Position numbers and translations under genes: made by a program. 64,000 nucleotides of DNA from NCBI GenBank assembly GCA_977862235.1, contig OZ374558.1, positions 1,240,001-1,304,000 of the forward strand, in the 5' to 3' direction. The stretch comes from Dudresnaya verticillata. Taxonomy: Eukaryota. How positions within the stretch are numbered: position 1 is the stretch's first letter; each line of letters begins with the position of its first letter. The notes below the pieces were generated by a model that made no database searches, was not told the origin of the DNA, and saw only the letters and a list, made by a program, of their open reading frames with translations. Of the stretch, positions 16,913 to 45,977 are shown in pieces.

Positions 16913-17164
16913 ATATTGGTCGAAAGAGCTGCATAATCGGTTTCGGAAGGAGATAGAAGGCAGATTTGAGAATGTATCTATCGCTACGATGTTTGCGGGA
17001 ATGGAGACAGAAAGAGATAGACTTTACATGAGTTGACGCATTTGATGAACTCAACAGAATGCGAAGTTGTTCCATTCCCTTTTTGAAGCTCACAGAGTAA
17101 AAAGTGTCGCAGATATGCAGAGTTTGTCTTTTAGCCGCTCCATTACATTTCCGTTCCATTACAG

Positions 17165-18316
17165 TGTTGTAGACAGGGTGTTTATGGAATAGAAACAGGC
17201 TTGCGGGGATGAAACAACCGTTATCTCGTTGGTCGAATCAACGGTGTGTCAGGAGCGGGCTCGACAATACTGCCGGGGAATATTAAAGCATTACGTTGGA
17301 TACTTAGCTCCACTTTCCGGTCGGTAGGTCTTCAAAGACCCGTAACGCCGTTCTTTGACCCTGAGAACGCGGTTCTACAACGGCTCTCAGAATCGCGGCA
17401 ATCTCTCCCGCGGCCCTCTGCAACATTCCTCCCAAGTTGAAATCACGGTCACTTATTGGCTGACGGTTTTTGAGTCAATGGCTGGGCGTGGTCCATTCTG
17501 GACAGTTCTGAACAGTTCCGGACGGTGATTGGCTGTTCTCCTGCGCCGCCAGCGCCCAACTGTACCATTGGTTGGATATGGCTGGCTGTGGTTGGCTTGC
17601 CAGACCGGTACATGGCCAGTGGTTGGCTGAAACAATCCTTGGGGCCATCCACAAGCCATTCTTGATGCCCCACTCGCAATGCCTTCCACTGTGTCTACCG
17701 ACCTTGCCCCGAGAACAGTTCAGTCAGTCTTTTGCTCCAGGGAGATTGACGTACTTGCGTAACGCAATGGTGCGGAAGTTGCCGGGTGGACTGCTTGCTC
17801 TTACCCCTACGTGAGCGACTGCTGTCAACTGCTTCTGTGAGGGGAATTCTGTTGTCGCCCAGAACGCCAGGGACCCAAGCTGTTCTGTAGGGAATAGTCA
17901 GGCCCGCAGAGGGAATTCCAGCGCTCGTAAGTATCAACTGTGTCCGGTGTCCGGATATCTGCCAAGCGGGGCAGGATCAGCCTCTCCTTTCAGGTGAGCA
18001 CAGATTGTACTTGTTTGCCCGATATATGTGGGGTAGGCACAGTGTGAGAGCGTGACAGCGGAAGATATGCCAATACCGAGACTGGCGGCGGTTTTTTGTG
18101 TTGCCCGGACTGGCAATTGAAGCTCCTTCCAGGTTGTAGCTGATAAAGCGCCATCAAGTATGCTTAGAAGAGAGAGAGCGCGAGAGAGAAAGAAAGAGAG
18201 CTGAGAAAGCTAGGACATTAGAGACCGAGACCGACGCTCAGTGAAATATTGAATTGAACCCCTCTCTTTCTGCTTTCTGCTCTCTCCAGCTCTGTCCAGG
18301 ACCACTATGAACAACA
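17165..18316 (+). mobile_element. Possible solo LTR (~1.15 kb); duplicate at 28023-29174
   Basis: TGTTGT...ACAACA inverted termini, GA-rich then CT-rich tracts near the 3' end, no convincing ORF. The flanks do not form a TSD. Confidence 0.35.
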
Positions 18317-18619
18317 GGGAACACTTAAATCATAATCTTGGGAATGGTACGATACGATCTAGAGATAGTGCTAAATAGGGGAAGGCGCTTGTCGCCTGGT
18401 GTGTTCTAGTGTAAAAGACTCCTCGAGGGAAACTGCTCGCTTCTACACCGTGGAGCTCATGTCAGGTTTTTTGGACTACTCTGATAGAGAGAGAAGACAA
18501 ATTTATAGATGCAGAAGCTAAAAGGTACGCTACTTCGCCCAAGAGACTAAAGAGACAATGGAGAAGGCAAGCAGACGGCGGTTCATAGCTAAAGATTGAA
18601 GCAAATGAGAGATAAACCG

Positions 18620-20997: not shown

Positions 20998-21005
20998 GCT
21001 CTCGG

Positions 21006-21743
21006 CTACGACTCAGAAAGCTCCTCGAGCCTTTTCCTGGCTTTACGAGACCCCAAACCTGCAGCTCTCTGGTACAGTTCAATCGCCTTTGGCAAGTCCC
21101 TCTTCACTTCTGCATGATCACTCTCCAAGATCCGGGCCAGTTCGTACATCGACCCTATATCTCCTGACGCAATGCCTTGCTCCAGCAACGTCATGCTACG
21201 TGGAACATCTCTGTTGACACCTTCCCTTCCAAAGAACAGAATTAGGCTGAGCTCAACAATGGACGGGAGGAATCCACCATCGATAGCATACTGATAATAC
21301 CCAATTCCCATTTCAGTATCCTTTTCATATCCCCAACTCCCTTCAAGATATCGCGTTCCCAGAAAATGTGCGGCGGACATGCTGCCATTTTCCAAGGAGT
21401 GTGTAATAAGAATTCTCCCGCGGTGTCTATCAGTAGGGACAGCCACATCTGGGCTCAATAGAATCTCCCCTAGCATGAAACTCGAAATGACATCACCGGC
21501 GATGTGTCCTTGCTCATACAGCTCGCAAGCTCTTGGAAGGTCCTGCGCGACGCCGTCTAGTCCGTGCTGTAGAAAAAATGCCAGCCTGCATCTCGAGCGG
21601 GTGCAGTCGCGTGCGGTGCAGTACTCAAGCAGATCCATTGCTTTTTTCTTGTCCTTTGCGACGCCATTTGTTCCATACCAGTAAGACAGAGCTCTTTCAT
21701 GCTGCTCTGCAAGGCTTCGTCGCTGGTGTTGCCAAGATCTCAT
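21006..21743 (-). CDS. Sel1-like repeat (SLR) protein, copy 1 (first ATG at 21743; frame stays open to 21875)
   Basis: About six SLR units: YWYGTNGVAKDKKKA, GLDGVAQDLPRACELYEQG, AAHFLGTRYLEGSWGYEKD, GVNRDVPRS, SMYELARILESDHAEVKRDLPKAIELYQRAAGLG. Confidence 0.85.
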   Translation of the reverse strand: MRSWQHQRRSLAEQHERALSYWYGTNGVAKDKKKAMDLLEYCTARDCTRSRCRLAFFLQHGLDGVAQDLPRACELYEQGHIAGDVISSFMLGEILLSPDVAVPTDRHRGRILITHSLENGSMSAAHFLGTRYLEGSWGYEKDTEMGIGYYQYAIDGGFLPSIVELSLILFFGREGVNRDVPRSMTLLEQGIASGDIGSMYELARILESDHAEVKRDLPKAIELYQRAAGLGSRKARKRLEELSES

Positions 21744-22101
21744 GTTTCCCGTTTTGCGGCCTATCTCCTGGAAGCAAAGATGTCGAGCTGAGGAGCTCGC
21801 GCGTGTTCCTGGTTGGGGAAGGACGGCTCTTTGTGGTGTCAATACCACCGCGAAGATGTGTTGGTAATACAGCACATTTCCGTGGATCTAGCGCTACTTC
21901 GGGAAAGACGTGTGCTAGTTGGACGAAAAAAGGCGCGACTGGAAGTGGATCACGGCGCCAATCCGGATTGGAGACAGCGAGCGACGTGCACGAAGTTTTG
22001 GAAACTTTTCGACACCGGTTCGAAAATGTTTCGGGGTAAACGTCTGATGTCACTTTACGAAAGCATGAAGCTAGAGCATCCCTACTGGATATTCTTAAGC
22101 A

Positions 22102-24151
22102 CTACATAGGAGGCAAATCTGCAGGAGTCATGCGGCGACGATTGACGCTGCCGGCGACAAACAGCGTAACAAATGAGACAAGACGATTCAAGAGAGCATG
22201 TTTCTCAGCAAGCGGGCAAGTGCCTTTCTTTTCGGCGAGAAAGTTGGCGAAGACTTGAGCGCCGATGTCGAAGCCAGCACCGGTGCGCCCATATATATCA
22301 ATGACCATCGGGTGCAGCTCGATGTCATAATGATCACAAACAGCGCGGTAATAGTTACGTTTCGCCCTCTCGCGGGCAAGGATGGCCTGACCAGCGATGC
22401 GACCGGTTCTGCCCGGCAATGAATGGGGACTGGCGACAGAGGCATCGAACGCTTGTTCTTTAGGATCAAAGCTGCGATCGTCCATGTAGATGTCTAGGTG
22501 AAGCGGGTCGGGGTGGGGTCAGAAGGATCGACAAAGGGCTCTTCCAGGCGAAGTTGGACACCATGATGAAGCGAAACAGTACGAACATGACCAGCGAGTT
22601 TGTCCTGAAGGCCGTTGTGGCGACAGATAGAACCTTTGCGAGCGCCACAGAATGTGGCATGGTGCCCATATCGGTCGAGCAGAGGGATAGAGGAGCGGGT
22701 GCCAGCTGCGCAGCGGGAGCATGGGAGGTCGCCACTGAACAACGGGAGACTGAGACGAAGGCGGACCATGGTCTTCCAGATCTCAGGCTCGACGCGAAGA
22801 TCACTCCCGTGAAAAGGGATAGTTCTGAATGGGCGAGCAGAGTTTGAGGTACCAGTAGATTGGAGTCGTACACGAGTGCGGATGTCGCCAGCATCATGAG
22901 AGGCAGGCGTCAGGGTAGAAAGGTTATCAAGCAGGAGCCGGTTGTTTAAGTCGTGTTGTAGAGCTAGAGCGTACGTGGGCTGGAAGGCAGTGGATAAATC
23001 CCGAGCCAGTAGCAAGTCCATGGAATAGGGTGCGGCAGATGGCGAGAGGAATAAAATGCTCTGTATGCCTCGTAAAGGAGCAGAGAGGGTAGTACGAGCG
23101 CTAAAACCGGAAACGCCGAGTAGAGCAGTGATAGTCGGCAAGCAGGCGAGAACGGAACTCAGAAAGGCAATATCCGGCAAAACCATGAAGTATGCGTGAG
23201 ACCCAAACCGCCTTGATGCAGCGGGAGACCAGCCAATTCCCAAGCCCTGTTGGTCAGAGCCCCATGCGTTTCCTCAAAAACGCCTCGCATGTTGTTGCCG
23301 TGGTGACACGCACCAACCCGGGCAATTTGCGGTGGGGTTGTTCGAAGGAGATACACGAGCTTGCTGGCACCAGCAAAGTAGCGAAGGAGGTGAAACATTA
23401 ACTGCGGGTCTCCAAGTGCGGAGAGACGAGAAAAGATATGCTGCACAACGCTTTGGCGTTGCTGGGTAAACTGGAGGCACCCGTGCCCGGTACCGACAGG
23501 GGGCCCAAGAATATCAATGCATGGAGAACGGTTCAGATGACACGGAAGCGTGGTGACAACCGAGCGGCGCATGGAGAACGGTCGGATCCACCAAGCCTCG
23601 GTCTTATTCATTTGCATCCGGAAACCAATAGAGGCCCCCCGATCTTGTAAGAATGAAAGGATTTCAGAAGCAGCGGAAAGCGGAGCAACGATGTTGAGGC
23701 CATCCTCGTAGCATGCAACCAAGGGAAGGTCGGGGAAGGCAGCAATGAGCTGGTCAAGGAGAGGTTGAAAGGCAAGGGCAAAGAGTAGCATACTGAGCGG
23801 ATCCCCTTGTTGGGTTCCGGTGCGACTCCAGATAGTGTGGGGCCCGAACAGTAAAAGGGGGTCGCTGTAGAAAAGATAGTGCACAACCTTGGCGAGGTGC
23901 AGAGCATACTGAATAACCTGAGGGAGCAAGTGAGAACGGTCGATTGTGTTGAATGCGTTTTCGGCATCGATACGCAAAAGAACGAGGTCTTCAGAGTCGT
24001 TGTTGTCCACCACCACTCGGATAGCCTGCACCAAGGCCTCACAGCCGTTGGGGACACCAACAGCAAGCTGGTGAGGAAGGAGGTAGTTTAAGATGCTGGC
24101 GTCTTGAGAAGCGCTTTGGTTAAGAAGCCGACTGACGAAACGGCGGAGCAC
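22102..24151 (-). mobile_element. 5'-truncated CRE-clade non-LTR retrotransposon (RT, CCHC, restriction-like endonuclease), frameshifted
   Basis: QLAVGVPNGCEA, LRIDAENAFNTIDR, TGTQQGDPLS, degenerate YxDD (CYEDG), CSRC...LDRYGHHATFC...RHN, AFDASVASPH...RERAKRNYY...LHPMVIDIYGRTG. Confidence 0.92.
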
Positions 24152-25249
24152 AGCTCAAAATTGAACGGGCTCTTCTCAGAAGCTTCGTGAAGTGGCACAA
24201 TATCAAGCTTTCCGCCGCATGATGGGGAGATATTCGAGACCCTAGCGCCTCACCCAGATTCTCGAACGCGAAGGCCTCGATGACAAAGCCAATAACATAC
24301 GCTATAAAACCGAAAAAACTCGAGGGGGAAACACAATGCCCATCTGCAACATCGACGATGGTGTATGAACCAATTCCGGAGAACCGGGCGCTGGCGATCG
24401 AGCCGTTCGAGGACGCGCTATTCGCGCTGCCGTTTTGTATGGCAATGCGGGTGGATCAGAATATGTGGAACAGGAGATACTGGTCTTGTGGCGCACAGAT
24501 AAAAACTGATGCACGCGGAAGAATAGCCCGGAGCACGGGTCCGGCAGCTTGAGATCTTAGTGGCCCTCTTGTGGGACACGAGGTTTCCGTTTGATTAGGA
24601 GAAGCGCTAACCTGACTCATTCAGCTGAAACGGCGAGTAGAACGGAAGATTGTGCATCACAGTCGGGCCGCGCGAAGAGAAGAAATGAAGGCAGTAGGTC
24701 ACAATTTGTTGCAGATTACAACCGCACTACAGAATCAATGAGGCGCGTGCACAACTTCGTTATACGCCAAGACCAAGGAGCTGTTCAATTCTTGTTGGGA
24801 AGCCTGCAAGGTGTCTTGTTCGAACTCATGGATCGTGTGCTGCGGCTGCGATTCCGCTGTTGTGTGTTATTCTTAATCTGCGGTAGGTTGTAGGGTTGGG
24901 CGGGGTGGTTAGAGGCAGATGTGAGGGGAACTGCAGAATACGATGCGCACTCGGTGGATAAGTTGCGTCGGGAGCGGGAGGGGCGTGACTACGCGTTCGA
25001 CGCCGCTACAACGGTTCCACGTGGCCGACTGAGCGATCACTGCGTGCTGCGGATGGGCCGAGGTAGCGCCGCCCCTCGGCGTAAGGAACAGATCAGTGAA
25101 TGTATGGAGGGCCATCTGCGTACAGCACACGGTCTTGCGGTGCCGTAACCGCGATTCGGTGCTGTTGCACAGAGCCTGACGGCGGTGGCTGTGCGGCGTT
25201 TCGGCGACTGCAGCACAGCGGACACGACACGGTTGAGAAATAAATGCAA

Positions 25250-25965: not shown

Positions 25966-27536
25966 CCTCGGAACCCAAAGGATCCCTCAGTTTAAACGTG
26001 GCATTTGCCCTTGAACTGCTACTCGTTCATCTCCAATCGAGTACTGAAGCCGGCTCCCCATATTGATGCATCAATATTTCCGTCAAGAACTGGTAGCCGT
26101 ATCAGCAGCGGTGGTGTATTTATTTCACTGCCCCGTCTTTCTGAAGGTGGAGGGTACTTCTAAAGCTTCCTTCTCACGTGCGCCACTCGAAAGACTATGA
26201 TTCACAGCAATATCACCTAGAAGCGAGCCCAGGAAAAAGAAAGCTTCGAGGCCCGAGAAGGGTGTAGTAGATTTGGGGCAGAAAAGGCCTGATATTCACC
26301 AACAGTGGACGCTTGTCATCGCCCTCATATAAGAATGCTTTAAACGATGCCAGGAAGGGGGGCTCCTGATATAATACTCTGAGGGGCATTTGCGGAGCAG
26401 AACAGTGGTCCAGACTCCAATAGAAGAAAAGGCAAGAAAGCTGGCAGCCATAAGGACTCGGAAGGGGATAATGTACCGTTGTGTACGGAAAACTCCGGCT
26501 CTTTGTGGAAGCACTTGGAAGTGCAATGGCACGTCTGGCCTTTCCCCGTGTAGTAGCAGCCTATGCAGGGCCCGGGCTCCGAGACAAGCAGAAAAGCCAG
26601 TCCCAGAGCGACCCCAGCCGACAAGACCTTGGCGCCTACGTCATTGGTCAGACAGAAGTGCACGTCGCCTCACGGCTCTGATCGAAGCCGAAGGTTTCCT
26701 AAGCCCACGTTATCGTGGAATGATAGTGCGACCCCGAAACTCTTCATAATTTGCTTAGATTCATCCTGCGCTGGGGACTCCCGCCCATTTGCAAGACGCG
26801 TCATAAGAAGTGCGTGAGAACCAACAAGAACACTTCCTTCGGTACTACTAGAAACAAACAATAAATTCTAACATCTCAAGTTCACGCAACCTCCTGTGGT
26901 TCACTCAACATTTTATACTATTGATGCACACGTACAGCTTCCACTGAATAAAGACCTTCACCTGGGCCCTATCTAATGCAAAAATGGCCTGTCACCTTCG
27001 CTGCCCCGTACGGCTCCTGCTCCCGTGTGGATAGCATTGGGCTCGGTTGCGATCGCCTCCTCGGCTACACGCAAAAAACATTAATCGTTTCAAAACAAAA
27101 AGTCGTGCTTGTCCAGCGCCGGGCGTAACAAACTATATCTCCGTCTAGGAAGAGTTCCGTCCAACATCCCAAGAAGTTGGCTGTATGTTTGTTCTAGTTA
27201 CGTAAGCCCCCAAGTGGCAGACCCAAATCAATCTCGCGCCAGGTAATAATACCCCTCAATTTGGAAGGACCTGCGACGTCCTCATTTGTTGCCCTGAATG
27301 TCTTTCCCTGCTTCGGGCCCTGCTATGGGTAAAGACGCCCTTGTGTTGCAATACCTTTCTCCCTTTCAGCAAAAGCAGACGGTTTCTTGCTGCTCATCTA
27401 ACAAACAATCTGGTATAAATGCGCTCCCTACGCTGCCCTCTTCCTCAACGAGCAGCTCGCAACCCGAAAGAGCAACCCGACACACCCCAATTCAAAACCC
27501 TTCCCCAAATCAACTTGAAACAACTCACCGAAAAAT

Positions 27537-27770
27537 ATGGCTCTCTTCAAGATATTTGCGGTGTTGTCCATGATCCTCCTTGTCTCCGGGTCTGTGGGTG
27601 CTGCAGCGGTCACCAAGGTCGACAAGAACCCGGAGCTCACAGTAGAGTCCATGACGAGGATGATGAAGGAGTTATTCCCATGCCAGACGGATTCTGACTG
27701 CAACAAGCAGATGAGCGGTTATTCGTTCTGTGACAGAACACATGCCTTCTGCATTCCGTTGTACAGGTAA
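27537..27770 (+). CDS. Small secreted cysteine-rich peptide precursor (77 aa), copy 2, identical protein
   Basis: Same translation as 16679-16912; TATAAAT at 27414. Confidence 0.75.
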   Translation: MALFKIFAVLSMILLVSGSVGAAAVTKVDKNPELTVESMTRMMKELFPCQTDSDCNKQMSGYSFCDRTHAFCIPLYR

Positions 27771-29477
27771 ATATTGGTCGAAAGAGCTGCATAATCGGTT
27801 TCGGAAGGAGATAGAAGGCAGATTTGAGAATGTATCTATCGCTACGATGTTTGCGGGAATGGAGACAGAAAGAGATAGACTTTACATGAGTTGACGCATT
27901 TGATGAACTCAACAGAATGCGAAGTTGTTCCATTCCCTTTTTGAAGCTCACAGAGTAAAAAGTGTCGCAGATATGCAGAGTTTGTCTTTTAGCCGCTCCA
28001 TTACATTTCCGTTCCATTACAGTGTTGTAGACAGGGTGTTTATGGAATAGAAACAGGCTTGCGGGGATGAAACAACCGTTATCTCGTTGGTCGAATCAAC
28101 GGTGTGTCAGGAGCGGGCTCGACAATACTGCCGGGGAATATTAAAGCATTACGTTGGATACTTAGCTCCACTTTCCGGTCGGTAGGTCTTCAAAGACCCG
28201 TAACGCCGTTCTTTGACCCTGAGAACGCGGTTCTACAACGGCTCTCAGAATCGCGGCAATCTCTCCCGCGGCCCTCTGCAACATTCCTCCCAAGTTGAAA
28301 TCACGGTCACTTATTGGCTGACGGTTTTTGAGTCAATGGCTGGGCGTGGTCCATTCTGGACAGTTCTGAACAGTTCCGGACGGTGATTGGCTGTTCTCCT
28401 GCGCCGCCAGCGCCCAACTGTACCATTGGTTGGATATGGCTGGCTGTGGTTGGCTTGCCAGACCGGTACATGGCCAGTGGTTGGCTGAAACAATCCTTGG
28501 GGCCATCCACAAGCCATTCTTGATGCCCCACTCGCAATGCCTTCCACTGTGTCTACCGACCTTGCCCCGAGAACAGTTCAGTCAGTCTTTTGCTCCAGGG
28601 AGATTGACGTACTTGCGTAACGCAATGGTGCGGAAGTTGCCGGGTGGACTGCTTGCTCTTACCCCTACGTGAGCGACTGCTGTCAACTGCTTCTGTGAGG
28701 GGAATTCTGTTGTCGCCCAGAACGCCAGGGACCCAAGCTGTTCTGTAGGGAATAGTCAGGCCCGCAGAGGGAATTCCAGCGCTCGTAAGTATCAACTGTG
28801 TCCGGTGTCCGGATATCTGCCAAGCGGGGCAGGATCAGCCTCTCCTTTCAGGTGAGCACAGATTGTACTTGTTTGCCCGATATATGTGGGGTAGGCACAG
28901 TGTGAGAGCGTGACAGCGGAAGATATGCCAATACCGAGACTGGCGGCGGTTTTTTGTGTTGCCCGGACTGGCAATTGAAGCTCCTTCCAGGTTGTAGCTG
29001 ATAAAGCGCCATCAAGTATGCTTAGAAGAGAGAGAGCGCGAGAGAGAAAGAAAGAGAGCTGAGAAAGCTAGGACATTAGAGACCGAGACCGACGCTCAGT
29101 GAAATATTGAATTGAACCCCTCTCTTTCTGCTTTCTGCTCTCTCCAGCTCTGTCCAGGACCACTATGAACAACAGGGAACACTTAAATCATCATCTTGGG
29201 AATGGTACGATACGATCTAAAGATAGTGCTAAATAGGGGAAGGCGCTTGTCGCCTGGTGTGTTCTAGTGTAAAAGACTCCTCGAGGGAAACTGCTCGCTT
29301 CTACACCGTGGAGCTCATGTCAGGTTTTTTGGACTACTCTGATAGAGAGAGAAGACAAATTTATAGATGCAGAAGCTAAAAGGTACGCTACTTCGCCCAA
29401 GAGACTAAAGAGACAATGGAGAAGGCAAGCAGACGGCGGTTCATAGCTAAAGATTGAAGCAAATGAGAGATAAACCG

Positions 29478-31855
29478 GACCAGCACTCACGAGGTAGTGT
29501 CAGGGATCCCCGACACCAACTCCAAACAGTCCCCTTATCCGCAGCTCCGTCGGGCCGGCCGCTCCACCAACGCCGCTTGCCGCTTTCCCTCCTCTACTCA
29601 CGCCCACATCCGCGCAAAGCGTGTTTTGACCTGGGACGCGAAACCCAGCTTGCTCAGCTTTCCTCTGCACGCCACTCTTTCGACCCGCGCAAGCACGTCT
29701 TGGCCAGCTTGAACTGCCTCCCTACCGAGCATTGCGCCGCAGCTGGCCCCCTCTTCCACTCCTATATGACTTTGCGTTGTATGAGCGCACTTGGGGGCGG
29801 TTCTGGAAGACATTGATGGATGCCCGCGCAGCGTGCTGCGAAAACATTCCCCAATGGCGGCTTCGAGTGTGGCTGTATGCTCACCACTTCGCTGTAACGC
29901 CCAGTAGCACACAAGACCGCACGCACAGACGCTGTCACTTCTGTCACTCGAAGACCCCGACCCATCCGCTGTCGCCCGCGTCTGCGACGCACTGCGAGCC
30001 ATCCGTCGTACATGCCTCGAAGAATACCCCTCACCGCATGCCACCCAATAGACAGGCCCACTCACTACCACATCTGCACTCTGTAGGGTATCACTCCCCG
30101 CCCATCAATCGACCGTGTGCAGGCAAATGGGCCAAAGTCGCCTACACAGGACCACGTTAAACAACAAAAAATACAACAACACATGTTTGCTTCTCAGTTG
30201 CGACTTGTGAAAGCTTCTGCTCTCTCTAAGACAGATTGTTCCGCTCAACCTACAGTAGCAGCCATTTCCCGACCCCGGGAGTCGTCCTTGCACTCCACAT
30301 TCTGCAACATTGTCTCCACAGACGCCACCGCATCTCCATGCTTTGAGTATATGTTACTGGCGTACCATACTCCGCAGAAAACCACATGTTCCGTATAGGC
30401 CCAGTCTCGCTTCGCATGCACCGTGTGGTAACTCGTGGCGCGCAGCGTTGCGAAGGGAAAGTGTACAACTGGGAAAGGAAACGGACGCGGGTGGACAAGA
30501 GCGAATCGGCTGGCGATGCACCTTGGGCGATCCTCTCGATCCTCTCCACTTCCCGTGGGGTCTGCCCCGAAGGGCTCTGGCCTTTATGACACTACTCTCT
30601 ATCGAGCAAATCTGCTCCTACCAGCTTCCAGACAGGGAACAGCTTGCTGTCGGTGCGCCAGCGAGCTTGACAGTCATCTTGAGAAATACTTTTCCCTGAC
30701 AACAGACAGTTCCAGGCCGCGAACCAACACACGTGTGCCATCGCGCAAGCGCCCACGCCTTGCGGAGCCGCAAGGCTGCGATCGCTTCCAATGCGTGAAG
30801 CGCTGCTCGCGAGCACAGTGCTCCGCGTCACAACCGGCATTAGAACTACTGGTTCCTGTCAACCATCTTCCGACTCTTCCCTGTCATTTGGGGACGTTCC
30901 CAATTCCGCCCCGCCGACTCCACGCGTCCCTCTAGCCTAGGTTCTGCCTTGCATCCCACCCCATCATTCCTACCATCCATAGAATCTCTTACGTCGTTGA
31001 GTAAATCTGGCGGATTGGCCTCCGCGATGCTCATGACGCCTCCGCCTCCGCCGTCTCCACACAGAAGCACGGGATTATTATGTGCTGACTCATACGCCAT
31101 TGTTTCCGATTCTGGTGCACTTTTGATCATCTTGTAAAGTTTAATCTCACTCCCAGCTCAATAGAGTTTACCAGCACCTCCGTGCTCTTCATTTACGGGT
31201 ACGACTACCTGTCCCCACTGTGAGGCTGGTAATCGCAGTCGTGTTTCTCTCTTGGATCCCTACGGCCATCAGGCCACCGTATGCACTGCTCAAGAGGGTG
31301 TTGTTTCGCTGCCATAACATGCTTCAAGATAAGCTTGTCGAGTTTATTTTGTCGCTCTCATGGGCTCGATGCTCGTGTTGCAGCGCCGTTTCCCAACCCG
31401 ACGCATCCTGATCGTGGCTCTACCATCTCTATTTGTGCATTGATGATCCGACTTTTGCTTCATTTCCACAAGCGTTCGACGTTTCCATCATAAGTTCTCA
31501 TTCCCACTCAAGCTTGTCTGGCTATGTTTCTGGGCAGGCCCTTGCCGCTCGCGAGCGTTCCAAGCGCCGACACTATCGTGATATTGGTCGTATTCATGGC
31601 ATTACCCTTCATCCGTTGGTAATGGATATCTACGGTCGAGTTGGAATCAGCAATTATTCCGGACAGTTAACACTTGCAAACTTTATCGCGGACAAGAAAG
31701 GCTCGAATCCGCTTGTTGAGAAGAATCCTCTCCTCACTCGCCTATTTTCGTTTGTGCTCCAATATGTAGCCCTTACTGTGAACCGTCGGCTACTTCTCAG
31801 CGCCTCCAGTCCTTTCTCGTATTCTCTTCCCCTGATGTTCCCCCCTTGGTCCTAA
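29478..31855 (+). mobile_element. Decayed CRE-like non-LTR retrotransposon, copy 2
   Basis: Duplicate of 18620-20997; the endonuclease region is open in ORF 31433-31855. Confidence 0.8.
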
Positions 31856-31863
31856 GTTCTAGA

Positions 31864-32601
31864 CTACGACTCAGAAAGCTCCTCGAGCCTTTTCCTGGCT
31901 ATACGAGACCCCAAACCTGCAGCTCTCTGGTACAGTTCAATCGCCTTTGGCAAGTCCCTCTTCACTTCTGCATGATCACTCTCCAAGATCCGGGCCAGTT
32001 CGTACATCGACCCTATATCTCCTGACGCAATGCCTTGCTCAGGCAACGCCATGCTACGTGGAACATCTCTGTTGACACCTTGCCTTCCAAAGAACAGAGT
32101 TAGGCTGAGCTCAACAATGGACGGGAGGAATCCACCATCGATAGAATACTGATAATACCCAATTCCCATTTCAGTATCCTTTGCATATCCCCAACTCCCT
32201 TCAAGATATCGCGTTCCCAGAAAATGTGCGGCGGCCATACAGCCATTTTCCAAGGAGTGTGTAATAAGACTTCTCCCGCGATGTCTATCAGTAGGGACAG
32301 CCACATCTGGGTTCAATAGAATCTCTCCTAACATGCAACTAGAAAACGCATGACCGACGTTATGTCCTTGCTCATACAGTTCGCAAGCTCTTGGAAGATC
32401 CTGCGCGACGCCGTCTAGTCCGTGCTGTAGAAAAAATGCCAGCATGAATCTAGAGAGGGTGAAGTCGCGTGCGGTGCAGTACTCAAGCAGATCCATTGCT
32501 TTTCTCTTGTCCTTTGGGACACCATTTCTTCCAAACCAGTACGACTGAGCTCTTTCATGCTGCTCTGCAAGGCTTCTTCGCTGGTGGTGCCAACTTCTCA
32601 T
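31864..32601 (-). CDS. Sel1-like repeat protein, copy 2 (frame open to at least 32658)
   Basis: Uninterrupted paralog of 21006-21743 with the same SLR motifs. Confidence 0.85.
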   Translation of the reverse strand: MRSWHHQRRSLAEQHERAQSYWFGRNGVPKDKRKAMDLLEYCTARDFTLSRFMLAFFLQHGLDGVAQDLPRACELYEQGHNVGHAFSSCMLGEILLNPDVAVPTDRHRGRSLITHSLENGCMAAAHFLGTRYLEGSWGYAKDTEMGIGYYQYSIDGGFLPSIVELSLTLFFGRQGVNRDVPRSMALPEQGIASGDIGSMYELARILESDHAEVKRDLPKAIELYQRAAGLGSRIARKRLEELSES

Positions 32602-33050
32602 GTTGCGAGTCTTGCGGCCAATCTCCTTGAAGCAAAGATGTGGAGCTGAGGAGCTCACGCGCGTTCGCGGTTAGGGAAGGACGACTCTTTGTGGTGTCAA
32701 TACCACGGCGGTGGTGTGTTGGTCACCACGACGCTGTTTTGGTAAAACAACACATTGTGATGATGATGATGATGATGACACATTTCCGAGGAACTGGCGC
32801 TTCTCCGGGAAAGACAACATTTTTGTTAATTTTATCGAACAGTTTTTCCGCCCCTCTCGCCCGTTGGGGCCAAGGTCCATCTTCGTATCGATGTCAGAGC
32901 ATCGGCCCTGACGAGTCCACACTTTCAACCCCCTCTGAGTGTGGATCCAGACCTTCAACCCGCTATGAGTGGAGAAAGACTGGTACTGTATCATCACCTC
33001 TATCGTCCCACCAGGAAAGATGGGTCATAGGTTACCCTTCATCTTTGTCC

Positions 33051-34200: not shown

Positions 34201-35450
34201 CTAGAATTGCCAGTGTCTGTGCGTGCGGTCGCAGTACGAGGCGGGCGGCTGGCCAGCTGGGTGGGATCGGTAAAGTCCCCAGTGGTGGAATAGGAGAGTT
34301 GTCGGAGCGGGCGTACTAGGGAATGTTGGAGCTGTCAACGACGATAGGGGGCATCTGGGATTCGAAAAGTGCTTGCAGCTTTCTGAGCCTGTTCGGGGGG
34401 CATTTAATGCGTCCGCTGGCCGATTCAGATCCAGAAGAAGAGAGCCTGGACGCAGCCCAAGTTTGACTCCAGTTAGGGGGTGAGTGGGGTTAAAAGCCAG
34501 CGCGTACTCGAGAATGGGGCCGACAAGCGTGCGGTAAATGAAGCGAACGCAACTGGGAGGCATTCGGGGAGTTGAGCATGGACTGGGCTCCAATTCCATC
34601 ACAGGTTGACCCGGTGCCGAGATAGTGTGCGCTTGGGACAGCCTCGATTTATCTTCCAGCAATGCAGAGCCGGGAGGAAGAGGGGCGCAGACTGTGTCGC
34701 GTTGGGAGGAGAATGTGACATTTTTCGCCGATCATGCCATGCAACTGCGTTGGGCCCAGTCGTCGCAGATTTCCAATGCCTTCCTTAACTCTTGTGGGGA
34801 GTTGAGATGCAGAAGGCAGTCGTTCGCTACATGCAGACCGGGGAGGCGTGCTGATGGACGTTGGAGGTTAGAATACAGTTCTGCGGCTAGCAGCTCGATG
34901 TCGATGTTAAACAGGTCAGGGCTCAGGGGAGAGCCTTAAGTCACACCTCTGTGAACTGCTCCAGTATATCGAGAGATGTCGCCCACCGTTCGAACAGCGA
35001 GGGGACCAAGCATAGCCGCGATCATACGAGTTAAGTGATCAGGTAGTATCTCCTCTCTGGGTTTAAGGAGTTTGAGACGGTCAACTCCGTCGTGTGCACT
35101 CATGAGGTCTAGAATAGCGACATAGTCATCCCCACACTTCGTGGAGTGTTGGGCTAGGACAATGGCCATTTCCGTGCGGAGACCTGCCTGGAATTCCAGC
35201 TGCATTAAGTGTGGGGTGAAGTGGCTTTTCACTTCGCATGTGATCGCGCGGTCAACAACCTTGCGTAGATGTGAGAGTAGGCAAATTGGTCTATAGTCTG
35301 CATGGTCGTTTCGCGAGCCGCATTTGTGAATTGGAACCAGCAGCCCCCCGCTCCACTCTACGGGAAAGATTGAAAAGCGTGCGCAAACTTGGCGCATTGC
35401 CATGAGGAGGTCCACAACCAACGCTGTCGGTACCGATTGCCTTTCCGCGC
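34201..35450 (-). mobile_element. Truncated LINE reverse transcriptase (APE-type clades), pseudogenised
   Basis: KAIGTD, LVPIHKCGSRNDHADYRPICLLSHLRKV, AILDLMSAHDGVDR, RGVT*GSPLSPDLFNI, and downstream YRTLVGPILEYA. Confidence 0.88.
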
Positions 35451-36754
35451 GGGGGGGCGCAGCGGGTGGTCGCGTGGACAGCTGAGCTCCGCCCTGCCGT
35501 TGCCCCACACGCGCCGTGCGCGTGCCACGCTGCCGGCGGCGTCCAATCGCGCGCCGCGCATTGCACGCGCCGCGCGTCGCCGCAAACGCATTCCGCGTCG
35601 CCGCGTCGCGCCCTTCTTCCACTCCCGCCGCCTCCGTCCACCGCCGCCTTCGCTCCTTCCACCGCCCGAAAAGCAAAGCGCTCGCAATCCCTCCGGCCGC
35701 CACCTGCCCGCCGCCCAAGTCAACCTCCCCTCCGCGCATCCCGCCCGAAACCCCTCGCGTCACCCGCCCCGAGCGAAGCTCATCCGCAGCGCCGGCCCTG
35801 CGCAAGCAATGCGCTGCCTCGCCTCACCCTCGCAGTGCCGCCCGGCAAGTGCCACGCGTCCACCATCACCATCTCATCACCATCTCCACCCCGCGTCTGC
35901 AGCCCCACGCGAGAACACGCACGCATACGTGTACGTATCCATAACGACAGCCCCCGCACGCGCGCTCATCCCGTCATAACCTTCCCGTCCGTTCGAACGG
36001 CCATTACCGCCCGCCACAAGCCGTCGCAACTCCGGCACGCCAGCGCACATGTGGGCTGTCACCAACAGTGACACCTCAGCCCCGGTACCTGTGTAGCCGA
36101 TTTGACTCCATTCTACCTCGCCCTAGCCCTTACCCTTCGCCTTTGTCGCCTTCCTACTGCATTTCCCTTCATCAACCGTCACCCGCCATCCTCCATCCTC
36201 CACTCCCCGAAACATCTTAGCACCCTTCCTGTCACTTCCAGCCCAAAAATCCCTCTCCTCCGTCTCACCCTCCCCCCTGACGCTCCATTTCTACAACCCG
36301 CGACGGCACACCTCCCCACAACTCTGCCCCTTCCTTCTTGCCCTCCTCCCTCACGAAGCAAAAAAAAATTGCGCCCTCGTCCGTCGCTTAAACACACCCG
36401 CCCTGCGCGCAACTGCGCCAGTATCCACCGTAACGGCTACGAAAACACCCAAACAGGAAGTCAGGCAGACAGTGCACGTGCACCCACCCACCCACCACTT
36501 CGAAACACGTATAAGCAACTCGCCCTCGGTCCTTCCGCTCGTTACACACTCACACCGCGCAGCCGCTCCAACCTGCACAAATACATCTAGTGGCCTACCA
36601 ACAATTGAACAGCATCACTCTCGTCGTGTCCACCACTCCGCTCTCCCAAATTTAGGTGTGCCTCTACAACCCGCGTCTTCGAGCCTTGTCTGCCTGCCTG
36701 CAAGAAAAATCTGAACCACATCACCAGCCAGAAACGCTCCTGAAAGACTCAAAC

Positions 36755-37471
36755 ATGTCACAGGTCCGCGGCCGCAACGTTCTCCACAAGCAGCTGCTCT
36801 CCGAGGCAGACCGCGAAGAACTGTGTCGCGTCATCGGTGAGCTGGGCCCAGACCCAACCAGCAAGCACTTTGCGTCCCGCACGAAGAGCATCGGCTTCGT
36901 CTTGTGCATCGACGGTGATTGGTACCAGATCAACCGCAACTACTTTGCACAGGCAAAGGCCTACAATATGCTATCCGGTGGCTTCCGCCGCTACTATCGC
37001 GAGCTCCCGCGGGAGTTCATCGAGAGTCCCGCCGTTCAAAACCTGCTCTCCGAGTTCAAGCGCGTGCACGAAATCCCAGATGGAGAGCTCATATTGCTCA
37101 ACGTGCAAACTAGCCATGTTAGACATGGGGATAGGAACACTTGCCTAACGGGGCATGGAATTCATACAGATGGCACCGACAAGGCCATGCTAGTGTGTCT
37201 CGCCAGGAAGAACATTCAGGGGTGCATGAACTCGTTCTATGCCGACTATGCGGGCAATGATATCATCATGAAGCCGTTCGAGCTCAAGGCCGGGCACGCC
37301 TGCTTCTGGGAGGATAACCAGATCTATCACCACGTCGACCCAGGAGAGCCCGTCAAAGGCGCTGAGATTGGCGAGCGTACTGTTCTCGTCGCCAACTACC
37401 CCGCAAAGTTCTTCCTCGATGGCACTCAAAACCCCAAGAATATGTTGCAGAGGGGCCCTGCGAATATGTGA
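36755..37471 (+). CDS. 2OG-Fe(II)-dependent dioxygenase, 2OG-Fe_Oxy_2 (BsmA-like) family, 238 aa
   Basis: FAQAKAYNMLSGGFRRYY, GIHTDG (HxD), RKNIQG, DNQIYHHV (distal His), ERTVLV (2OG-binding Arg). Intact and intronless, with C/G-ending codon bias. Confidence 0.88.
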   Translation: MSQVRGRNVLHKQLLSEADREELCRVIGELGPDPTSKHFASRTKSIGFVLCIDGDWYQINRNYFAQAKAYNMLSGGFRRYYRELPREFIESPAVQNLLSEFKRVHEIPDGELILLNVQTSHVRHGDRNTCLTGHGIHTDGTDKAMLVCLARKNIQGCMNSFYADYAGNDIIMKPFELKAGHACFWEDNQIYHHVDPGEPVKGAEIGERTVLVANYPAKFFLDGTQNPKNMLQRGPANM

Positions 37472-40400: not shown

Positions 40401-41473
40401 TTCTCCCACCCTTCTACCAACATGTATCGAAACCATTTTCAGAGACACTCAATGGTCTCCTCGTTCTCGAAACAAAGCCAGGGCTTTTTGGCCTGCTTGG
40501 TTGTTTTCCTATTCCTCCATTGCACATCCGCGAAGAAGCTGAACTGTCATGATAGAAGAGTTGTTGATTCCTTCTACTCATGCAATGTCACGTTTTGCGA
40601 ACAACAGGGAGAAACCCATTGAGCACAGGCATCAAATTCAAGAAGAAACAGCTGAAGGGGTTTCTGGAGTCATGTTCGATTCAGTTTGGTGGTCCGAAAC
40701 CTCTGAAAGCTGGGTGCCTCCGCTTATCGAGGTCAAAAACGTTCAACAAGAACAAGTCTGTTAAGGCCATGAAGAAAATTTCAAAGATATGCATCCCGAT
40801 GGCCGGGAGGTAAACTCATCATTGTTCTTTTAAAATCCACAAGTAGGGGGATGGGGCATTTCGTGATTGAAGGAAAAGACACATTAGGCCTTTGGACCTC
40901 TCGAATGCACTTTTGTTTTGGGGGATAATCTTATAAAAATCAACCTATACCCGAGCTTACCTTCTCGATTGAATGGAACGACAGTAAGATTATGCTATGA
41001 GTCTGCTAATGATATTGGATGAATAAAACCATCTCAACCAGAGATCGCACGGCTTTCAGAGAAAAATAGTGTTGATCGAAAAGTCATTCTTGTACATTCA
41101 CGGCGGCGGCAACTTCTCTCCTAAGGATCTTTTTCAGTTCTGTAAGCCTTCAATCCAGCCTTAGATATTAGGATTAAGGGAGGACTGTTGGGTGGAAATT
41201 GTAAATAACATCATTGACAAGACAAAACATGAATTTGAGTTGTACTGTTGAAGATCAGTCGCGTTGCTTGGTAGTGAATCCTATTCAAAATTAACGATAG
41301 GTATAGACAAAAGAGCCTTGCCTCATGTTATGTTAGGATTTCTTTCCTTAGAACAAGACCGTCCGGCGGGGCGCCGTACTAATTTGCGGAGCGCTTTATG
41401 ATTTTTTTTGGAGTGATTTTATTGGTAGATTAAGAGAAACTTCTAGAGACATATCGAGTAGAGCAGTACATAT

Positions 41474-44400
41474 CCCTAATGCCATTATTTATCGATCGGT
41501 ATAGTGATCCGTTTACTGGAGAACGCCCTAGTTCGGCGCATCAGGAGACTTGCCAATTCTGACCACACATTGGCATAGACCATGTTTGTCCCGTCCTCTT
41601 TACAGAATTTCACCAGCAGAGATGCAATAGGAGTCGGACAACAAGCCGAGGAACTTGGGTCACTAGGCACGTTTTGGAATGTGTAAAAAAGGGCTTTTAA
41701 TAAGTATAGGGATCGATACAGTGACTAAACCGGGGACGCCAATCATGATAATTGCAACGAAACTTCACGATAGACACGCCTTTACCTTCTACTCTGCTTT
41801 CGTTGAGGTTTCTGGGTAGGGCCTACTCGATCCTGCGGTGTCGCTGGAGTGGTTCTCGACAACAGCCGCTTAGAGGCTCTTCGTGTTGTTTGCGGACTTC
41901 GCGCTGGTGTACTTGCGGGAGTGCTCACCACCTGGTCGCCAGCCCCCGCATTTCTCCCATCTTCATTATCGTCAGCAACTGGAGGATATCCCGTGATTCT
42001 TGGTCTTTGTCTGTGTTTTAAAACCGTGTTACAGTGCAAAAGACTCTAACAGCTCTTGCGCAAGCCGGGGTACGTCCGAATACAGAGCTGCACGCTGCAC
42101 ACCGGGCATCGATAGGAGTAACGATGTCCCCTCCAGGGACCCTCGTTCTGCCCACACATCACACAGTACAAAACCGGCCCTTGCTTTGGCGTATGTCCCG
42201 GAACCACTTGGCGGCGCTTTACGCCATCTGAACTATTGAAAAATGTAACGGCTTTCGATTGCGTGCCTCTGGCATCTTTTTCAGCCCCTCTGCATTGCGA
42301 AGCGGCAAGGGTCCCTTTCCGCAGCTTCTTGTCGACCATCCCTTATTGCAATCGTCTCATCATGCGACAATAATTGCTTTGAGACATCGTACCTAACATC
42401 GGCCGTCGCTTGAACTTTGTTCAGCATGTTTCGATTGTTGTCGAGAGTTTTGAATGTGTCAGCAAACTCGAGCAGAGTTTGCCTCTCAAACATGCTCCAT
42501 GCAAAGAATGCATTGATAGCTACCGTTTTTAGTGTCTGAGACACTATTTTCTGTTCCTACTTGAAGTGGGAAGTTGAGCTTCGCAAAATGGCCCTTTGCT
42601 GTGTTGCTCTATCTATGCCCGCTTTTTTCTTCGAGTAGAACGACTGTGCTGCATGCTTAAAAAGCTTGAGAGGGAGGAATGTGCCCTGCTCTAGCACGTG
42701 AGACAAACCATCTTCCAAAACTTGCGATGAGTTGTGATAGAGTAATGATACGTCCTGAGGACGAATGCAGAAATTTCTATTGTGGCCACATCTATAGCGA
42801 TTTCGTGTGCCCATTTCACAAGGGGTATGGAAAGAGTGTTCATCGTGTCAAAACAGTTTTGCACAACGAAATAAGGAAAGCTCACCACAACTGTGTATAG
42901 AATACCCGTCTCAGCCGCGGCAACGTAAACCGCATAGCCCAGTCGCAGTACCAGGACCTGATGCATAATCTGTGCCGCATGTGAGTTGGGTATGTACCTC
43001 TTAAATGTTTCGTCTCCAACTACACATAGCACTGGTTCTGAAGTAGACAATTGGATCCTTTGATCAAGCGTTGAGGCCGCTACTCTTGCCTTGATTTCGA
43101 CAGGTGCGAGCACTAAAATGTCTTCATTGTCCTGGGCATTAGGGTCTTCATCAGTGGAGGACGTCAGAATAGGCAAAGAAGCCTTCTTGAGCATCGCGAT
43201 GCCATCCGGCGAACAAGCGAGATACTGGGCATTTCGGTTGCATAAAAGACCTGCCTCAAAGACCTCTTCGACGAACGGTAGTGCACGTAAAGCGACCAGG
43301 ACCGCGTCTTCGTTCGCAGTTCCAGGCATCATGGCTTCCGTACATCGTTTGTTCGACAACCATCCGCTGTACAAAATTTTGAACCATTCTTCTAATGTCT
43401 TCTCTTGTGGATCCCCCGAGAGCCCTAACAAAGACTGTAAAGATCCACTGCTAAGCATTAGCAATCCGGCGTTTTTCCCGGTAATTCTGAACTGGCGTAG
43501 CACGAACCATTCCGCGCATCTTTGTCCGACGGTTAGCGGAAGACAATTTCTGCTGATTATGTACTCCACAGTGTCCTTTAGTGCAGCGACCTGCTCACCC
43601 TCAATGTTACGCCTCGTGTAGAGAACCATATTAATTCGGTATTTAGGTTTCAGGACAGCTATCCAAGTATTCAAGCTTTCCTGCATAGGCGCGGGTACGG
43701 TAAACATGAACCGAAGCAGTTTCGCGAACTTCTCAGTCCCATATTCACGAACAGCGACGGCAGTAGTCTTCTTCTGACCCACCAATGATGCTGAATCCGC
43801 AACGATGTTCTTCGTTGCAAAAAGGACATCGGGTCCAAGTTGAGGGTTGTCGTCGATAACAAAAGCGCGTCGACGGTCCAGCTGCAAGTTTGAAATGCTG
43901 TCATTAGTATCAAGGGAGTCACTGCTGTCACCGTCCTGTGCATTTTCACGGGAACCACTCGCTTGCTCTGTCTCATTCCGACCGGTAGTCTCCTGCAGGA
44001 AAGCTTCTTCCTCCAAATCACCTCTCCCAGGACGCAGGTATGAAGAACCCACAAAGGGATGGACACGCAGAAGATGGTCAGGCAATACGAATACGGAACT
44101 GAAACCAAACTCCGTGATCAGATCCATGGACAGCCGCTTTCCATACCCTCTGTCCGCTGTGATAATGCATGTGCTCGTCGCTTCCGCACCCCTTCCATCC
44201 GTCAGCACTTCCAAACGTTTTCTCACCGATTCTACTTGCGATTCCCCACGCCTCCTGAAGCGAAGCGCAAGCACAACCCTTAATGGATCATCGGCAATAG
44301 CATCCGCAGAATGACCCTCCTTGTCTGCTTTTCGCGCACTCAGCATCTTGACATGATTGCCCGAGACCCTTGTGCCGTAGAGGTCATCATCCAAAGTAGC

Positions 44401-45558
44401 CAAAAGATAAAGTGGAACGAAGAAAACCTTCTTAGTATCACGAGATGAGAGTTTTTCAAACTCACCCAATTGACATGTCAAATCGCGTTGGGAATTCCAC
44501 TCCATTTGACCTTCACGGCCGCGTCCAGTTGCGAAAAATGCCACAATGTTGTCTGCGAGGAAACGGATCCTTTCCAGAGAAAATGTTGAGCTTCCCGACT
44601 GTCGCAAAACAGCAATAGTCTTTTCAAAGCTAAAACCAGTAGTGTGCGAGAGCAACAGCACAGAAACATAGCGGTACATGTCTGAAAGCTTTACCATATC
44701 CGCGTCGAGCTCACGAAGCCGGATGAGTTCATTGAGCCACTCCTTCAACTGCTGTAGAATCCGGTTCATGAATAGAACAACAAAACCGCTTCGGGTAGGT
44801 GCAATGTCTCGCACAGAGCATTCAAGCTTCCTTTTGTCAACTGTCGTTCTACATAGAAGCCTTGCTCGTTTATGAAGGACATCGCCTGCAAACGATTACT
44901 CCGAAAGCAGAGAAACAGCTTGCGTAGGGCTTAAATTCCATCCATGAGTGGGGTCTTCGCGATTAGCCCGCCCTGACCCGCCGCCCGTCCTCTCCGACGC
45001 CCTCGACCTCGCGGTCTTCCCCTTAATGATGCTCGTCGCCCTCTCCCGAGACCCCTTGTTCCCATCCCACTCGTCGAAGCCGCCACCGGGGCGGGATCGG
45101 TGGATGAAGGCCCGACATTCCCTCCCAGATTGGGGGTGCCGTCATTAACCGGCGGAGCCTCCGGTGCTTCGACAGTAGCCATTCGCGGTAGCTCCGCACC
45201 TTGCAACGCCCTCCAGGTACGACAGGAGGCCTCCGCGGTGGGTAGCTTAGCGACGAAACAGCGGTGTGAGCAGCAACAGGGTTGCAAACGGGAAGGAGGG
45301 GTGTCGCACACCCGGGGGCGCAGCTCCGAGAGTACCTATGGCATTTTGGGTGTTGAAGGCTTGATCGGCTCCCGAGAGGGAGGAGATGCTTCTGGAGATC
45401 GCAACAAGGGAATTTAAGCAATTTTTACAGCCGAAAATGCGCCTCAAAGTACCGGCATGTTCTGCCCCTACTGAGCAGTATAGCGATCAGAAGGGGTGTA
45501 ACGGCCAAAATCCAAAAATAGGCTTCGATCACTATCCCGATCGATAACGGCATTAGGG
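41474..45558 (-). mobile_element. piggyBac-like DNA transposon, 4085 bp, with TIRs and ATAT target-site duplication
   Basis: Left TIR ccctaatgccattatttatcgatcggtatagtgatc (41474-41509). Right TIR gatcactatcccgatcgataacggcattaggg (45527-45558). ATAT lies at 41470-41473 and 45559-45562. Confidence 0.93.
41782..45182 (-). pseudogene. piggyBac-like DDD transposase with an embedded YqaJ/lambda-exonuclease domain and a C-terminal Cys-rich domain; several stops and frameshifts
   Basis: N-terminal RGRPRGRG. TLDDDL, RKADKEG, ITADRGY. YqaJ motifs GQRCAEWFVLRQFRITG, GTANE, LACSPDG, VEIKAR, QIMHQ. Then FYSKKKAGIDRATQ, AINAF, and CVMC...CPVC...LC...SC*SLLH. Confidence 0.88.
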
Positions 45559-45697
45559 ATATAGAGGTGGAGTGGCCAAGGCCTGGGCTGCCCCGCCCCC
45601 CTCCCCCTCGCCTCGCGCGGCTGCCCCTCCTCCCCTCCCCCTCGCCTCGCGCGCCCGCCCCCCCGCCCGCGCGCCCCACCCCCCGCCTCCCGAACGC

Positions 45698-45745
45698 TGT
45701 GTGTGTGTGTCTGTGTGTGTGTGTGTCTGTCTGTCTGCGTGTGAG
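45698..45745. repeat. (GT)n/(GTCT)n microsatellite after a C-rich tract
   Basis: tgtgtgtgtgtgtctgtgtgtgtgtgtgtctgtctgtct seen directly. Confidence 0.9.
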
Positions 45746-45816: not shown

Positions 45817-45977
45817 GCCTGTGTGCGTGTTTATCATAACAAGCCAAATTGGCCAAATTGGCTTGTTATGATAAACACGCACGCAGGCAAGCCAATTGGG
45901 CTTGTTATGGTAATCACTTATCATAACAAGCCAATTTGGCTTGTTATGGAGCCAATTTGGCTTGTTATGATAAGTGA
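45817..45977. repeat. Two adjacent palindromes built from cataacaagccaa(a/t)ttggcttgttatg
   Basis: 45817-45888 has 36-bp arms with 2 mismatches and no loop. 45914-45977 reads tcacttatcataacaagcc...ggcttgttatgataagtga. Confidence 0.92.

Follow-up and report, generated by a model that had tools for sequence, protein, structure and literature searches.

Introduction

The piggyBac transposon is a major tool of genome engineering, valued for its precise, footprint-free excision from TTAA sites. Lambda-type exonucleases have been described in other eukaryotic DNA transposons: in KolobokE, whose termini are of the RR...YY type, a lambda-exonuclease-like nuclease is located on the transposase domain's downstream side, and Kolobok elements occur in rhodophytes (PMC9587614), while in ISL2EU the YqaJ exonuclease is encoded in a separate open reading frame (ORF) (PMC4122938). 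Both sources bear out the statement, in the initial annotation of the DNA considered here, that YqaJ-like domains accompany ISL2EU and some Kolobok elements. The present analysis concerns a 4.1-kb element of Dudresnaya verticillata, contained in a stretch of 64,000 nucleotides (nt) of contig OZ374558.1 (assembly GCA_977862235.1, positions 1,240,001 to 1,304,000 of the forward strand). The whole stretch is referred to as the window, and all positions are counted from its first letter. With good confidence, the element can be read as a decayed copy of the piggyBac superfamily in which a lambda-exonuclease domain, predicted to resect or trim 5′ ends, is nested so that it separates the second catalytic aspartate (D2) of the transposase from the third (D3).

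If this reading is true, the presence of a second, apparently active nuclease in the catalytic core would mean that the insertion-domain junction of piggyBac tolerates an enzyme of 270 residues. The lineage with the nested nuclease would also provide a test case for the coupling of strand cleavage to end resection or to the choice of repair.

Domain order and catalytic conservation

The transposase is ordered as an Arg/Gly (RG)-rich N-terminus, a piggyBac DNA-binding/dimerisation region, D1, D2, an insertion-domain-like beta region, an exonuclease fold, D3 and a Cys-rich domain. In the window copy, a single frame of 734 amino acids (aa) covers the N-terminal DNA-binding/dimerisation part of the piggyBac type, followed by D1, D2 and the beta region, and takes in the exonuclease domain as a whole. 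Whenever a relative covers the stretch from D1 to D3, it shows this same order, and these relatives come from, among others, red algae, Plasmodiophora and marine protist transcriptomes. Among 182 proteins, 50 span both D1-D2 and D3, and the exonuclease segment is present in all 50. The initial annotation had described a piggyBac-type DDD (three-aspartate) transposase with a YqaJ/lambda-exonuclease domain in frame between its D2 and D3; this is upheld by profiles, by predicted structure and by each of the 50 relatives. Its concern that other members might lack the segment is thereby settled as well, and, as far as sequence comparison can tell, the protein is a family-wide two-nuclease transposase rather than the product of a one-off insertion.

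The 50 spanning members are 23–50% identical to the intact relative P0007. In their alignment the DDD triad is conserved almost throughout (D1 in 49/50, D2 in 49/50, D3 in 48/50), and the exonuclease residues behave in the same way, with Asp and Glu in 49/50 each, Lys in 48/50 and two downstream Gln in 48/50 each. The N-terminal Q..W...R..TG motif of the exonuclease shares this conservation (R or K in 50/50); in lambda exonuclease this motif holds the 5′-phosphate-binding arginine. Since both catalytic sets are nearly invariant, both nucleases appear from the alignment to be kept active by selection.

Profile comparisons

Pfam domains were scored in 44 full-length relatives, 19 of them close and 25 distant. 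The YqaJ profile (PF09588) was matched with an expectation value (E) below 0.01 in 15/19 close and 10/25 distant relatives, thus in 25/44. The gathering score of 22 bits was reached or exceeded in 17/44, and the matches mostly cover profile positions 1–146 of 150. The DDE_Tnp_1_7 profile (PF13843) scored above its gathering threshold in 7/44 relatives and below it in 1 more, its scores being depressed because the inserted domain splits the profile. The order of matches reflects the nested arrangement: in P0071, P0079, P0084 and P0137, a DDE_Tnp_1_7 match within profile positions 1–258 precedes YqaJ, and in P0024 positions 298–349 of the same profile are matched after YqaJ.

A family profile, built from 41 sequences with the window frame at their head, was searched against the PDB. 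It matched piggyBac 6x67 with E 3e-16 in collinear stretches, an earlier profile of 20 sequences having given E 3.2e-5. In the 6x67 alignment, profile positions 116–284 correspond to piggyBac 134–300, with the D1 motif, and positions 795–869 to piggyBac 435–505, with KGGVD, followed by the Cys-rich end. The exonuclease LHK-Exo (3syy) was matched at E 0.0027 by positions 510–622, which lie between the two piggyBac stretches. Both domains that had been called by eye from the letters are recovered by the family profile, and the resemblance is well above what chance would give. The piggyBat structure 9c0f was matched at E 1.6e-8. The pattern C..CG...C..C..LC...C of the Cys-rich domain is conserved, and this stretch matches piggyBat at E 0.0042; zf-Tnp_2 gave a weak match in P0007, under the cut-off (E 0.0059).

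Predicted structures and the site of the nuclease

AlphaFold models were made of the window 734-aa ORF with the family alignment (predicted local distance difference test, pLDDT, 83.4; predicted template modelling score, pTM, 0.76) and of P0007 (pLDDT 79). With Foldseek, the window model matched lambda exonuclease 3slp_A (E 3.6e-6, template modelling score 0.67 on the target) and piggyBac 6x67_C (E 1.3e-5). In VIA-align, residues 12–413 of this model were superposed on residues 117–429 of 6x67_C (Z 15.3, root-mean-square deviation 3.9, 291 residues) and residues 449–728 on the whole of 1avq_A (Z 15.1, root-mean-square deviation 3.8, 210/228 aligned); LHK-Exo and piggyBat followed with Z 14.2 and 12.8. 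The P0007 model was aligned to 6x67_C with Z 21.8 over residues 10–853, in a match that bridges the insert, and to 1avq_A with Z 14.8 over residues 451–723. Retroviral integrase cores (ASV integrase) were aligned to it over residues 158–790. As modelled, this intact relative returns to the piggyBac fold once the exonuclease has ended.

The insertion domain of piggyBac (6x67) is reported to be a beta-rich segment of about residues 372–433. Because the window model aligns up to piggyBac residue 429 and the profile resumes at 435, the nuclease would sit just after the insertion domain, between piggyBac positions of about 429 and 435 and before the D3 strand-helix. The proposal of the initial annotation that the exonuclease occupies the place of the insertion domain is therefore nearly correct in position, but that domain is retained, with the nuclease placed behind it.

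Relatives and extent of the family

A protein search with the 734-aa frame found 32 relatives at E ≤ 1e-3. The best is a protein of Gracilariopsis chorda (E 1e-224, 52% identity, 97% of the query); further relatives come from Chondrus crispus, together with many unnamed proteins of 1000–1260 aa, many of them intact. An exhaustive HMMER search with P0007 returned 2241 clusters at E ≤ 1e-3, 262 of them at E ≤ 1e-30; the best 150 of the 2241 clusters were listed, and among the matches listed the distant members that bear a name belong to Plasmodiophora brassicae and to an MMETSP marine-protist transcriptome. In the ESM Atlas, one cluster came up with a score of 0.94; it consists of eukaryotic 'hypothetical protein' entries, 20% of them with SAP, and is no more than a lead. 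A search of metagenome contigs and viral contigs with the family alignment gave no confirmed locus, and when metagenome contigs were scanned for the pattern of the terminal repeats, 0 matches were obtained.

By a quick maximum-likelihood search, two G. chorda copies are the companions of the window copy in the tree (Shimodaira–Hasegawa-like approximate likelihood-ratio test 99), and a further G. chorda copy, P0017, and the C. crispus copy belong to another sub-lineage; the long outgroup branches of this quick search are unreliable. The grouping points to a florideophyte red alga as the host. The automatic database names of the members vary between 'YqaJ viral recombinase domain-containing', 'PiggyBac transposable element-derived' and 'hypothetical', an inconsistency that results from the splitting of the Pfam signal. 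Many intact relatives (P0002–P0016 and others) are found on contigs of 3.6–4.6 kb, which is approximately the length of the element. Assembly of multi-copy elements into contigs of their own, or transcription of such elements, would lead one to expect contigs of such a size.

Gene remains and decay of the window copy

The features of the element are collected in Table 1. The relatives align collinearly with the gene remains, so the gene contains no introns, and they carry the same RG-rich N-termini. Between this N-terminus and the main frame, the reading frame changes. By tblastn, the main frame extends from about 45060 to 42706, with the TAA at 44896–44898 inside it. All three catalytic aspartates are retained in the window copy, that of D3 within a drifted motif (KAGIDR versus KGGVDG in the family), and the exonuclease motifs SPDG, VEIKA and HAAQIMHQ are intact. 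At 42046–42048, a TAG replaces the W of CW..WH and ends the Cys-rich domain early. In all, the gene is interrupted by three stops in frame and by no fewer than three frameshifts, in agreement with the decay noted at first sight, and every motif of the initial annotation was found where it had been placed. What the window contributes is a dead but red-algal genomic copy that is bounded by terminal inverted repeats and has ATAT as its candidate target sites.

Of the three in-frame stops, two (42046–42048 and 42557–42559) are TAG codons at conserved Trp positions. The codon for Trp is TGG, so such stops fit a G-to-A transition, and decay of the deamination type is a possible cause.

Table 1. Features of the element in the window, listed along the minus strand from the 5′ end of the gene.
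Feature	Position	Strand	Evidence or remark
ATAT adjoining the right terminus (candidate target-site duplication, second copy)	45559..45562	.	
Terminal inverted repeat at the gene 5′ end, 32 nt	45527..45558	-	starts CCCTAATGCC
Remains of a single intronless transposase gene	42001..45182	-	tblastn with intact relatives; ATG 45182-45180 to ~42001, three frames
N-terminal Arg/Gly-rich region, MATVEAP...RGRPRGRGRRRGR	44990..45182	-	lower bound approximate; out of frame with the main ORF
In-frame TAA stop	44896..44898	-	
Main stop-to-stop frame, 734 aa	42691..44895	-	
D1 motif TLDDDL	44380..44397	-	profile-aligned to piggyBac LTIDEQL
D2 motif ITADRGY	44143..44163	-	
Lambda-exonuclease/YqaJ-type PD-(D/E)XK domain	42712..43551	-	structure alignment to 1avq_A; ORF residues ~449-728
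Exonuclease N-terminal motifs GQRCAEWF and RQFRITG	43527-43504 and 43497-43477	-	
Exonuclease motif GTANE	43309..43323	-	
Exonuclease catalytic motif CSPDG	43201..43215	-	
Exonuclease catalytic motif VEIKA	43087..43101	-	
Exonuclease catalytic motif HAAQIMHQ	42958..42981	-	
Frameshift separating the D3 segment from the exonuclease domain	42700..42706	-	
D3 motif YSKKKAGIDRATQ	42599..42637	-	frame different from the main ORF; family YSKTKGGVDG.AQ
In-frame TAG	42557..42559	-	in place of the conserved W of KWEQK
AINAF motif	42506..42520	-	frame other than the main ORF
Interval with the second frameshift, C-terminal half	42281..42344	-	
Cys-rich C-terminal domain CVMCG...YRCPVCSVQLC...RKSC	42049..42165	-	frame other than the main ORF
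Terminal inverted repeat at the gene 3′ end, 36 nt	41474..41509	+	starts CCCTAATGCC
ATAT adjoining the left terminus, candidate 4-bp target-site duplication	41470..41473	.	

Termini and flanking sequence

With ATAT counted in as the target-site duplication, the element covers 41470–45562. The bounds that had been drawn by inspection, 41474 and 45558, are the exact outer bases of its terminal inverted repeats. The left and right repeats match at 30/32 positions, a 4-nt indel aside. A 15-nt end motif has just two occurrences in the window, one at each end of the element and in inverted orientation, with a chance expectation of 0.10. The termini are of the piggyBac-like CCC...GGG type, and the first six terminal bases are consistent with the piggyBac motif C[C/A/T][C/A/T][T/G/A][T/A/G][T/G/A] (PMC5381638).

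ATAT is a palindromic tetranucleotide and may alternatively prolong the inverted repeats. On this single copy, the ATAT flanks are likely to be a target-site duplication; no second copy and no empty-site paralogue were found within the 64-kb window. As a single observation, these flanks hint at a target other than TTAA, and ATAT is one of the rare non-TTAA sites of single piggyBac-like copies in the text of the survey (PMC5381638).

The sequence next to the element is itself repetitive. A run of C-rich 34-nt repeats (45591–45687) and then a (TG)n-like microsatellite (45698–45741) flank it directly. About 260 bp past the right end of the transposon, at 45817–45977, there is a cluster of near-perfect palindromes and 23–36-nt repeats with the unit TTATCATAACAAGCCAAATTGGC, which is possibly a small foldback element or one resembling a miniature inverted-repeat transposable element.

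Proposed mechanism and alternative explanations

In the proposed mechanism, the DDD core would be likely to nick and join the 3′ ends as in piggyBac. The nuclease would be held close to the junction of transposon end and flank, because it is located where the insertion domain returns to the catalytic domain. There it would probably load on the 5′-phosphate ends made by the transposase and degrade that strand in the 5′→3′ direction; its best fold and profile matches are 5′-phosphate-dependent 5′–3′ exonucleases. Several roles can be considered for such an activity. The most likely role, at somewhat less than an even chance, is resection of the 5′ strands of donor or gap ends; repair would then be steered to homology-directed copying, and the donor site would regain the element. 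Cleavage of the second strand in the manner of TnsA is a rather unlikely role, and trimming of the 5′ overhangs of the excised element before integration a still less probable one; what remains falls to other roles or to none. The initial annotation had suggested a 5′–3′ processing of flanks or ends, different from precise TTAA excision, and the ATAT flanks of this single copy are compatible with it. A broader proposal would see in these elements a widespread protist piggyBac lineage with a two-nuclease transposase in one chain, the DDD core cutting and joining the 3′ ends and the exonuclease cleaving or processing the 5′ strand, in a division of labour like that of TnsA and TnsB; such a lineage would be freed from the hairpin and from TTAA and could use other 4-bp targets such as ATAT. 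This can be put forward only tentatively and is doubtful.

Several observations weigh against the reading of a piggyBac transposase with a nested, active exonuclease. In Pfam searches at E ≤ 1, the window's own frames gave only weak zinc-finger noise and the 734-aa frame had no match, and a phmmer search of the 734-aa ORF against the PDB returned only noise, so that relatives, profiles and predicted structure are needed to call the domains. Among the relatives, YqaJ stays under the cut-off in 27/44 and piggyBac in 37/44. All structures entered on this side of the comparisons are predictions. One relative, P0091 (663 aa), is devoid of the stretch from after D2 to after D3, the nuclease included, which looks like an internal deletion or a fault of the gene model. 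The flanks are ATAT instead of the TTAA expected for piggyBac, and they are known from one copy, palindromic and with no empty site in the window. Finally, lambda exonuclease acts as a toroidal trimer, and a domain nested in a transposase would have to work alone or assemble.

Among the alternatives, the one that survives best, although it is regarded as unlikely, takes the nested PD-(D/E)XK domain for a second-strand cutter of the Tn7 kind, which would replace the hairpin route and relax the TTAA requirement. In Tn7, TnsB (DDE) cuts the 3′ ends and TnsA (PD-(D/E)XK) cuts the 5′ ends. In related transposases, the region of the insertion-domain/catalytic-domain junction handles the non-transferred strand, and it is at this junction that the nuclease is inserted. 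The conservation of both catalytic sets and the presence of ATAT rather than TTAA in the flanks also speak for such a cutter, and TnsA is listed as a PD-(D/E)XK transposase (PMC3424549). The best matches of the domain are, however, processive 5′–3′ exonucleases (lambda Exo, LHK-Exo) and not the restriction-endonuclease-like TnsA; no sign of a loss of hairpin chemistry was seen here, and the evidence on the target comes from one copy.

A silent exonuclease domain, acting as a structural or DNA-binding module, in effect an enlarged insertion domain without nuclease activity, is very unlikely. Inactive PD-(D/E)XK homologues do exist (PMC3424549), and nuclease activity in this family is a prediction, but the retention of D, E and K in 49, 49 and 48 of 50 members that share as little as 23–50% identity would be unexpected for a dead scaffold.

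That the element is no piggyBac at all but a KolobokE-type transposon, with its lambda-exonuclease-like nuclease and TTAA-type target, is highly improbable. The nuclease of the window element is nested between D2 and D3 and the termini are CCC...GGG, so KolobokE membership fails on both domain order and termini. The Pfam, PDB-profile and fold matches are all to piggyBac or piggyBat, in a PDB that holds no Kolobok structure for comparison.

The last alternative, a chance YqaJ insertion into one piggyBac copy or a chimera of the assembly or gene model, is favoured only by the prior that decayed repeats commonly hold nested insertions, and it can be dismissed on the uninterrupted 734-aa window frame over D1, D2 and the nuclease, the 32 relatives, the 2241 clusters and the order common to 50/50 spanning relatives from several eukaryotic groups.

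Other features of the window

The first 9.3 kb of the window (1–9285) are occupied by a tandem satellite with a 480-bp unit in 19.4 copies with 96% matches. A direct duplication of 6.75 kb with 98.4% identity is found at 15116–21865 and 25974–32723, the starts being about 10.9 kb apart. Each copy contains an ORF with Sel1 repeats on the minus strand (21006–21887 and 31864–32670), and a reverse-transcriptase fragment lies between the copies, also on the minus strand (23159–24154). A retroelement with very long terminal repeats may account for this arrangement, as may a segmental duplication. Another fragment of a reverse transcriptase (RVT_1, E 7.8e-6) is located at 34936–35823 on the minus strand, and an ORF on the plus strand (36656–37471) encodes a 2OG-Fe dioxygenase domain (PF10014, E 7e-23).

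Comparison with known systems

A literature search, with Repbase and Repbase Reports outside its scope, found no paper in which a YqaJ, lambda-exonuclease or PD-(D/E)XK domain is described for a piggyBac transposase; these two resources may hold red-algal piggyBac families of the nested-exonuclease type. In the main text of the 2017 survey of 157 piggyBac-like elements, from which sequences with long insertions were dropped, the word 'exonuclease' has 0 occurrences (PMC5381638).

The most distant comparison is functional. In Tn7, with TnsA and TnsB, and in Cas4-Cas1, a PD-(D/E)XK nuclease works with an RNase H-like transposase or with the integrase Cas1, respectively, in processing the ends to be joined. 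These systems are prokaryotic, their proteins are separate or fused end to end, and their nucleases belong to other subfamilies, so that they are compared as analogues, with no claim of homology.

Among eukaryotic DNA transposons, ISL2EU of the PHIS superfamily shares the YqaJ exonuclease with the window family. It differs in that YqaJ forms a separate ORF and the transposase is PIF/Harbinger-like with a THAP domain. Membership of the window element in ISL2EU was rejected, as one ORF has both domains and no THAP or Harbinger-type Pfam match was obtained in the window frames or the 44 relatives. KolobokE shares the combination of a eukaryotic cut-and-paste DDD/E transposon with a lambda-exonuclease-like PD-D/ExK nuclease, and it differs in its transposase superfamily, in the nuclease, which is not nested, and in its RR...YY termini. 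On the reading preferred here, piggyBac would join Kolobok and ISL2EU as a eukaryotic transposon with an acquired lambda-type exonuclease.

With lambda exonuclease/YqaJ (PF09588; 1avq, 3slp, 3sm4, 3syy), the family nuclease shares the whole fold, the PD-(D/E)XK residues and the Q..W...R..TG motif, at an identity of 14–18% to the solved lambda-type exonucleases. Here the domain is internal to a eukaryotic transposase, whereas lambda exonuclease is a free-standing phage recombination enzyme.

The closest system is canonical piggyBac (Trichoplusia ni piggyBac 6x67/6x68; Myotis piggyBat 9c0f; PF13843). The DDD triad in an RNase H-like core, the D1 motif LDDxL.G.R and the D3 motif Y..-KGGVD are shared, as are the N-terminal DNA-binding/dimerisation helices, the C-terminal Cys-rich domain, the single intronless gene, the short inverted repeats that start with CCC and the palindromic 4-bp flank. 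The window family differs by about 270 extra residues, which form a complete lambda-exonuclease fold, and an acidic linker, so its proteins reach about 1000–1260 aa in comparison with about 600 aa in piggyBac. The inverted repeats of the window element, at 32 and 36 nt, are longer than the average of 14 ± 2 nt in 157 piggyBac-like elements (PMC5381638), and its flanks are ATAT where those of piggyBac are TTAA. By the homology of its transposase, by its termini and by its Cys-rich domain, the element belongs to the piggyBac superfamily.

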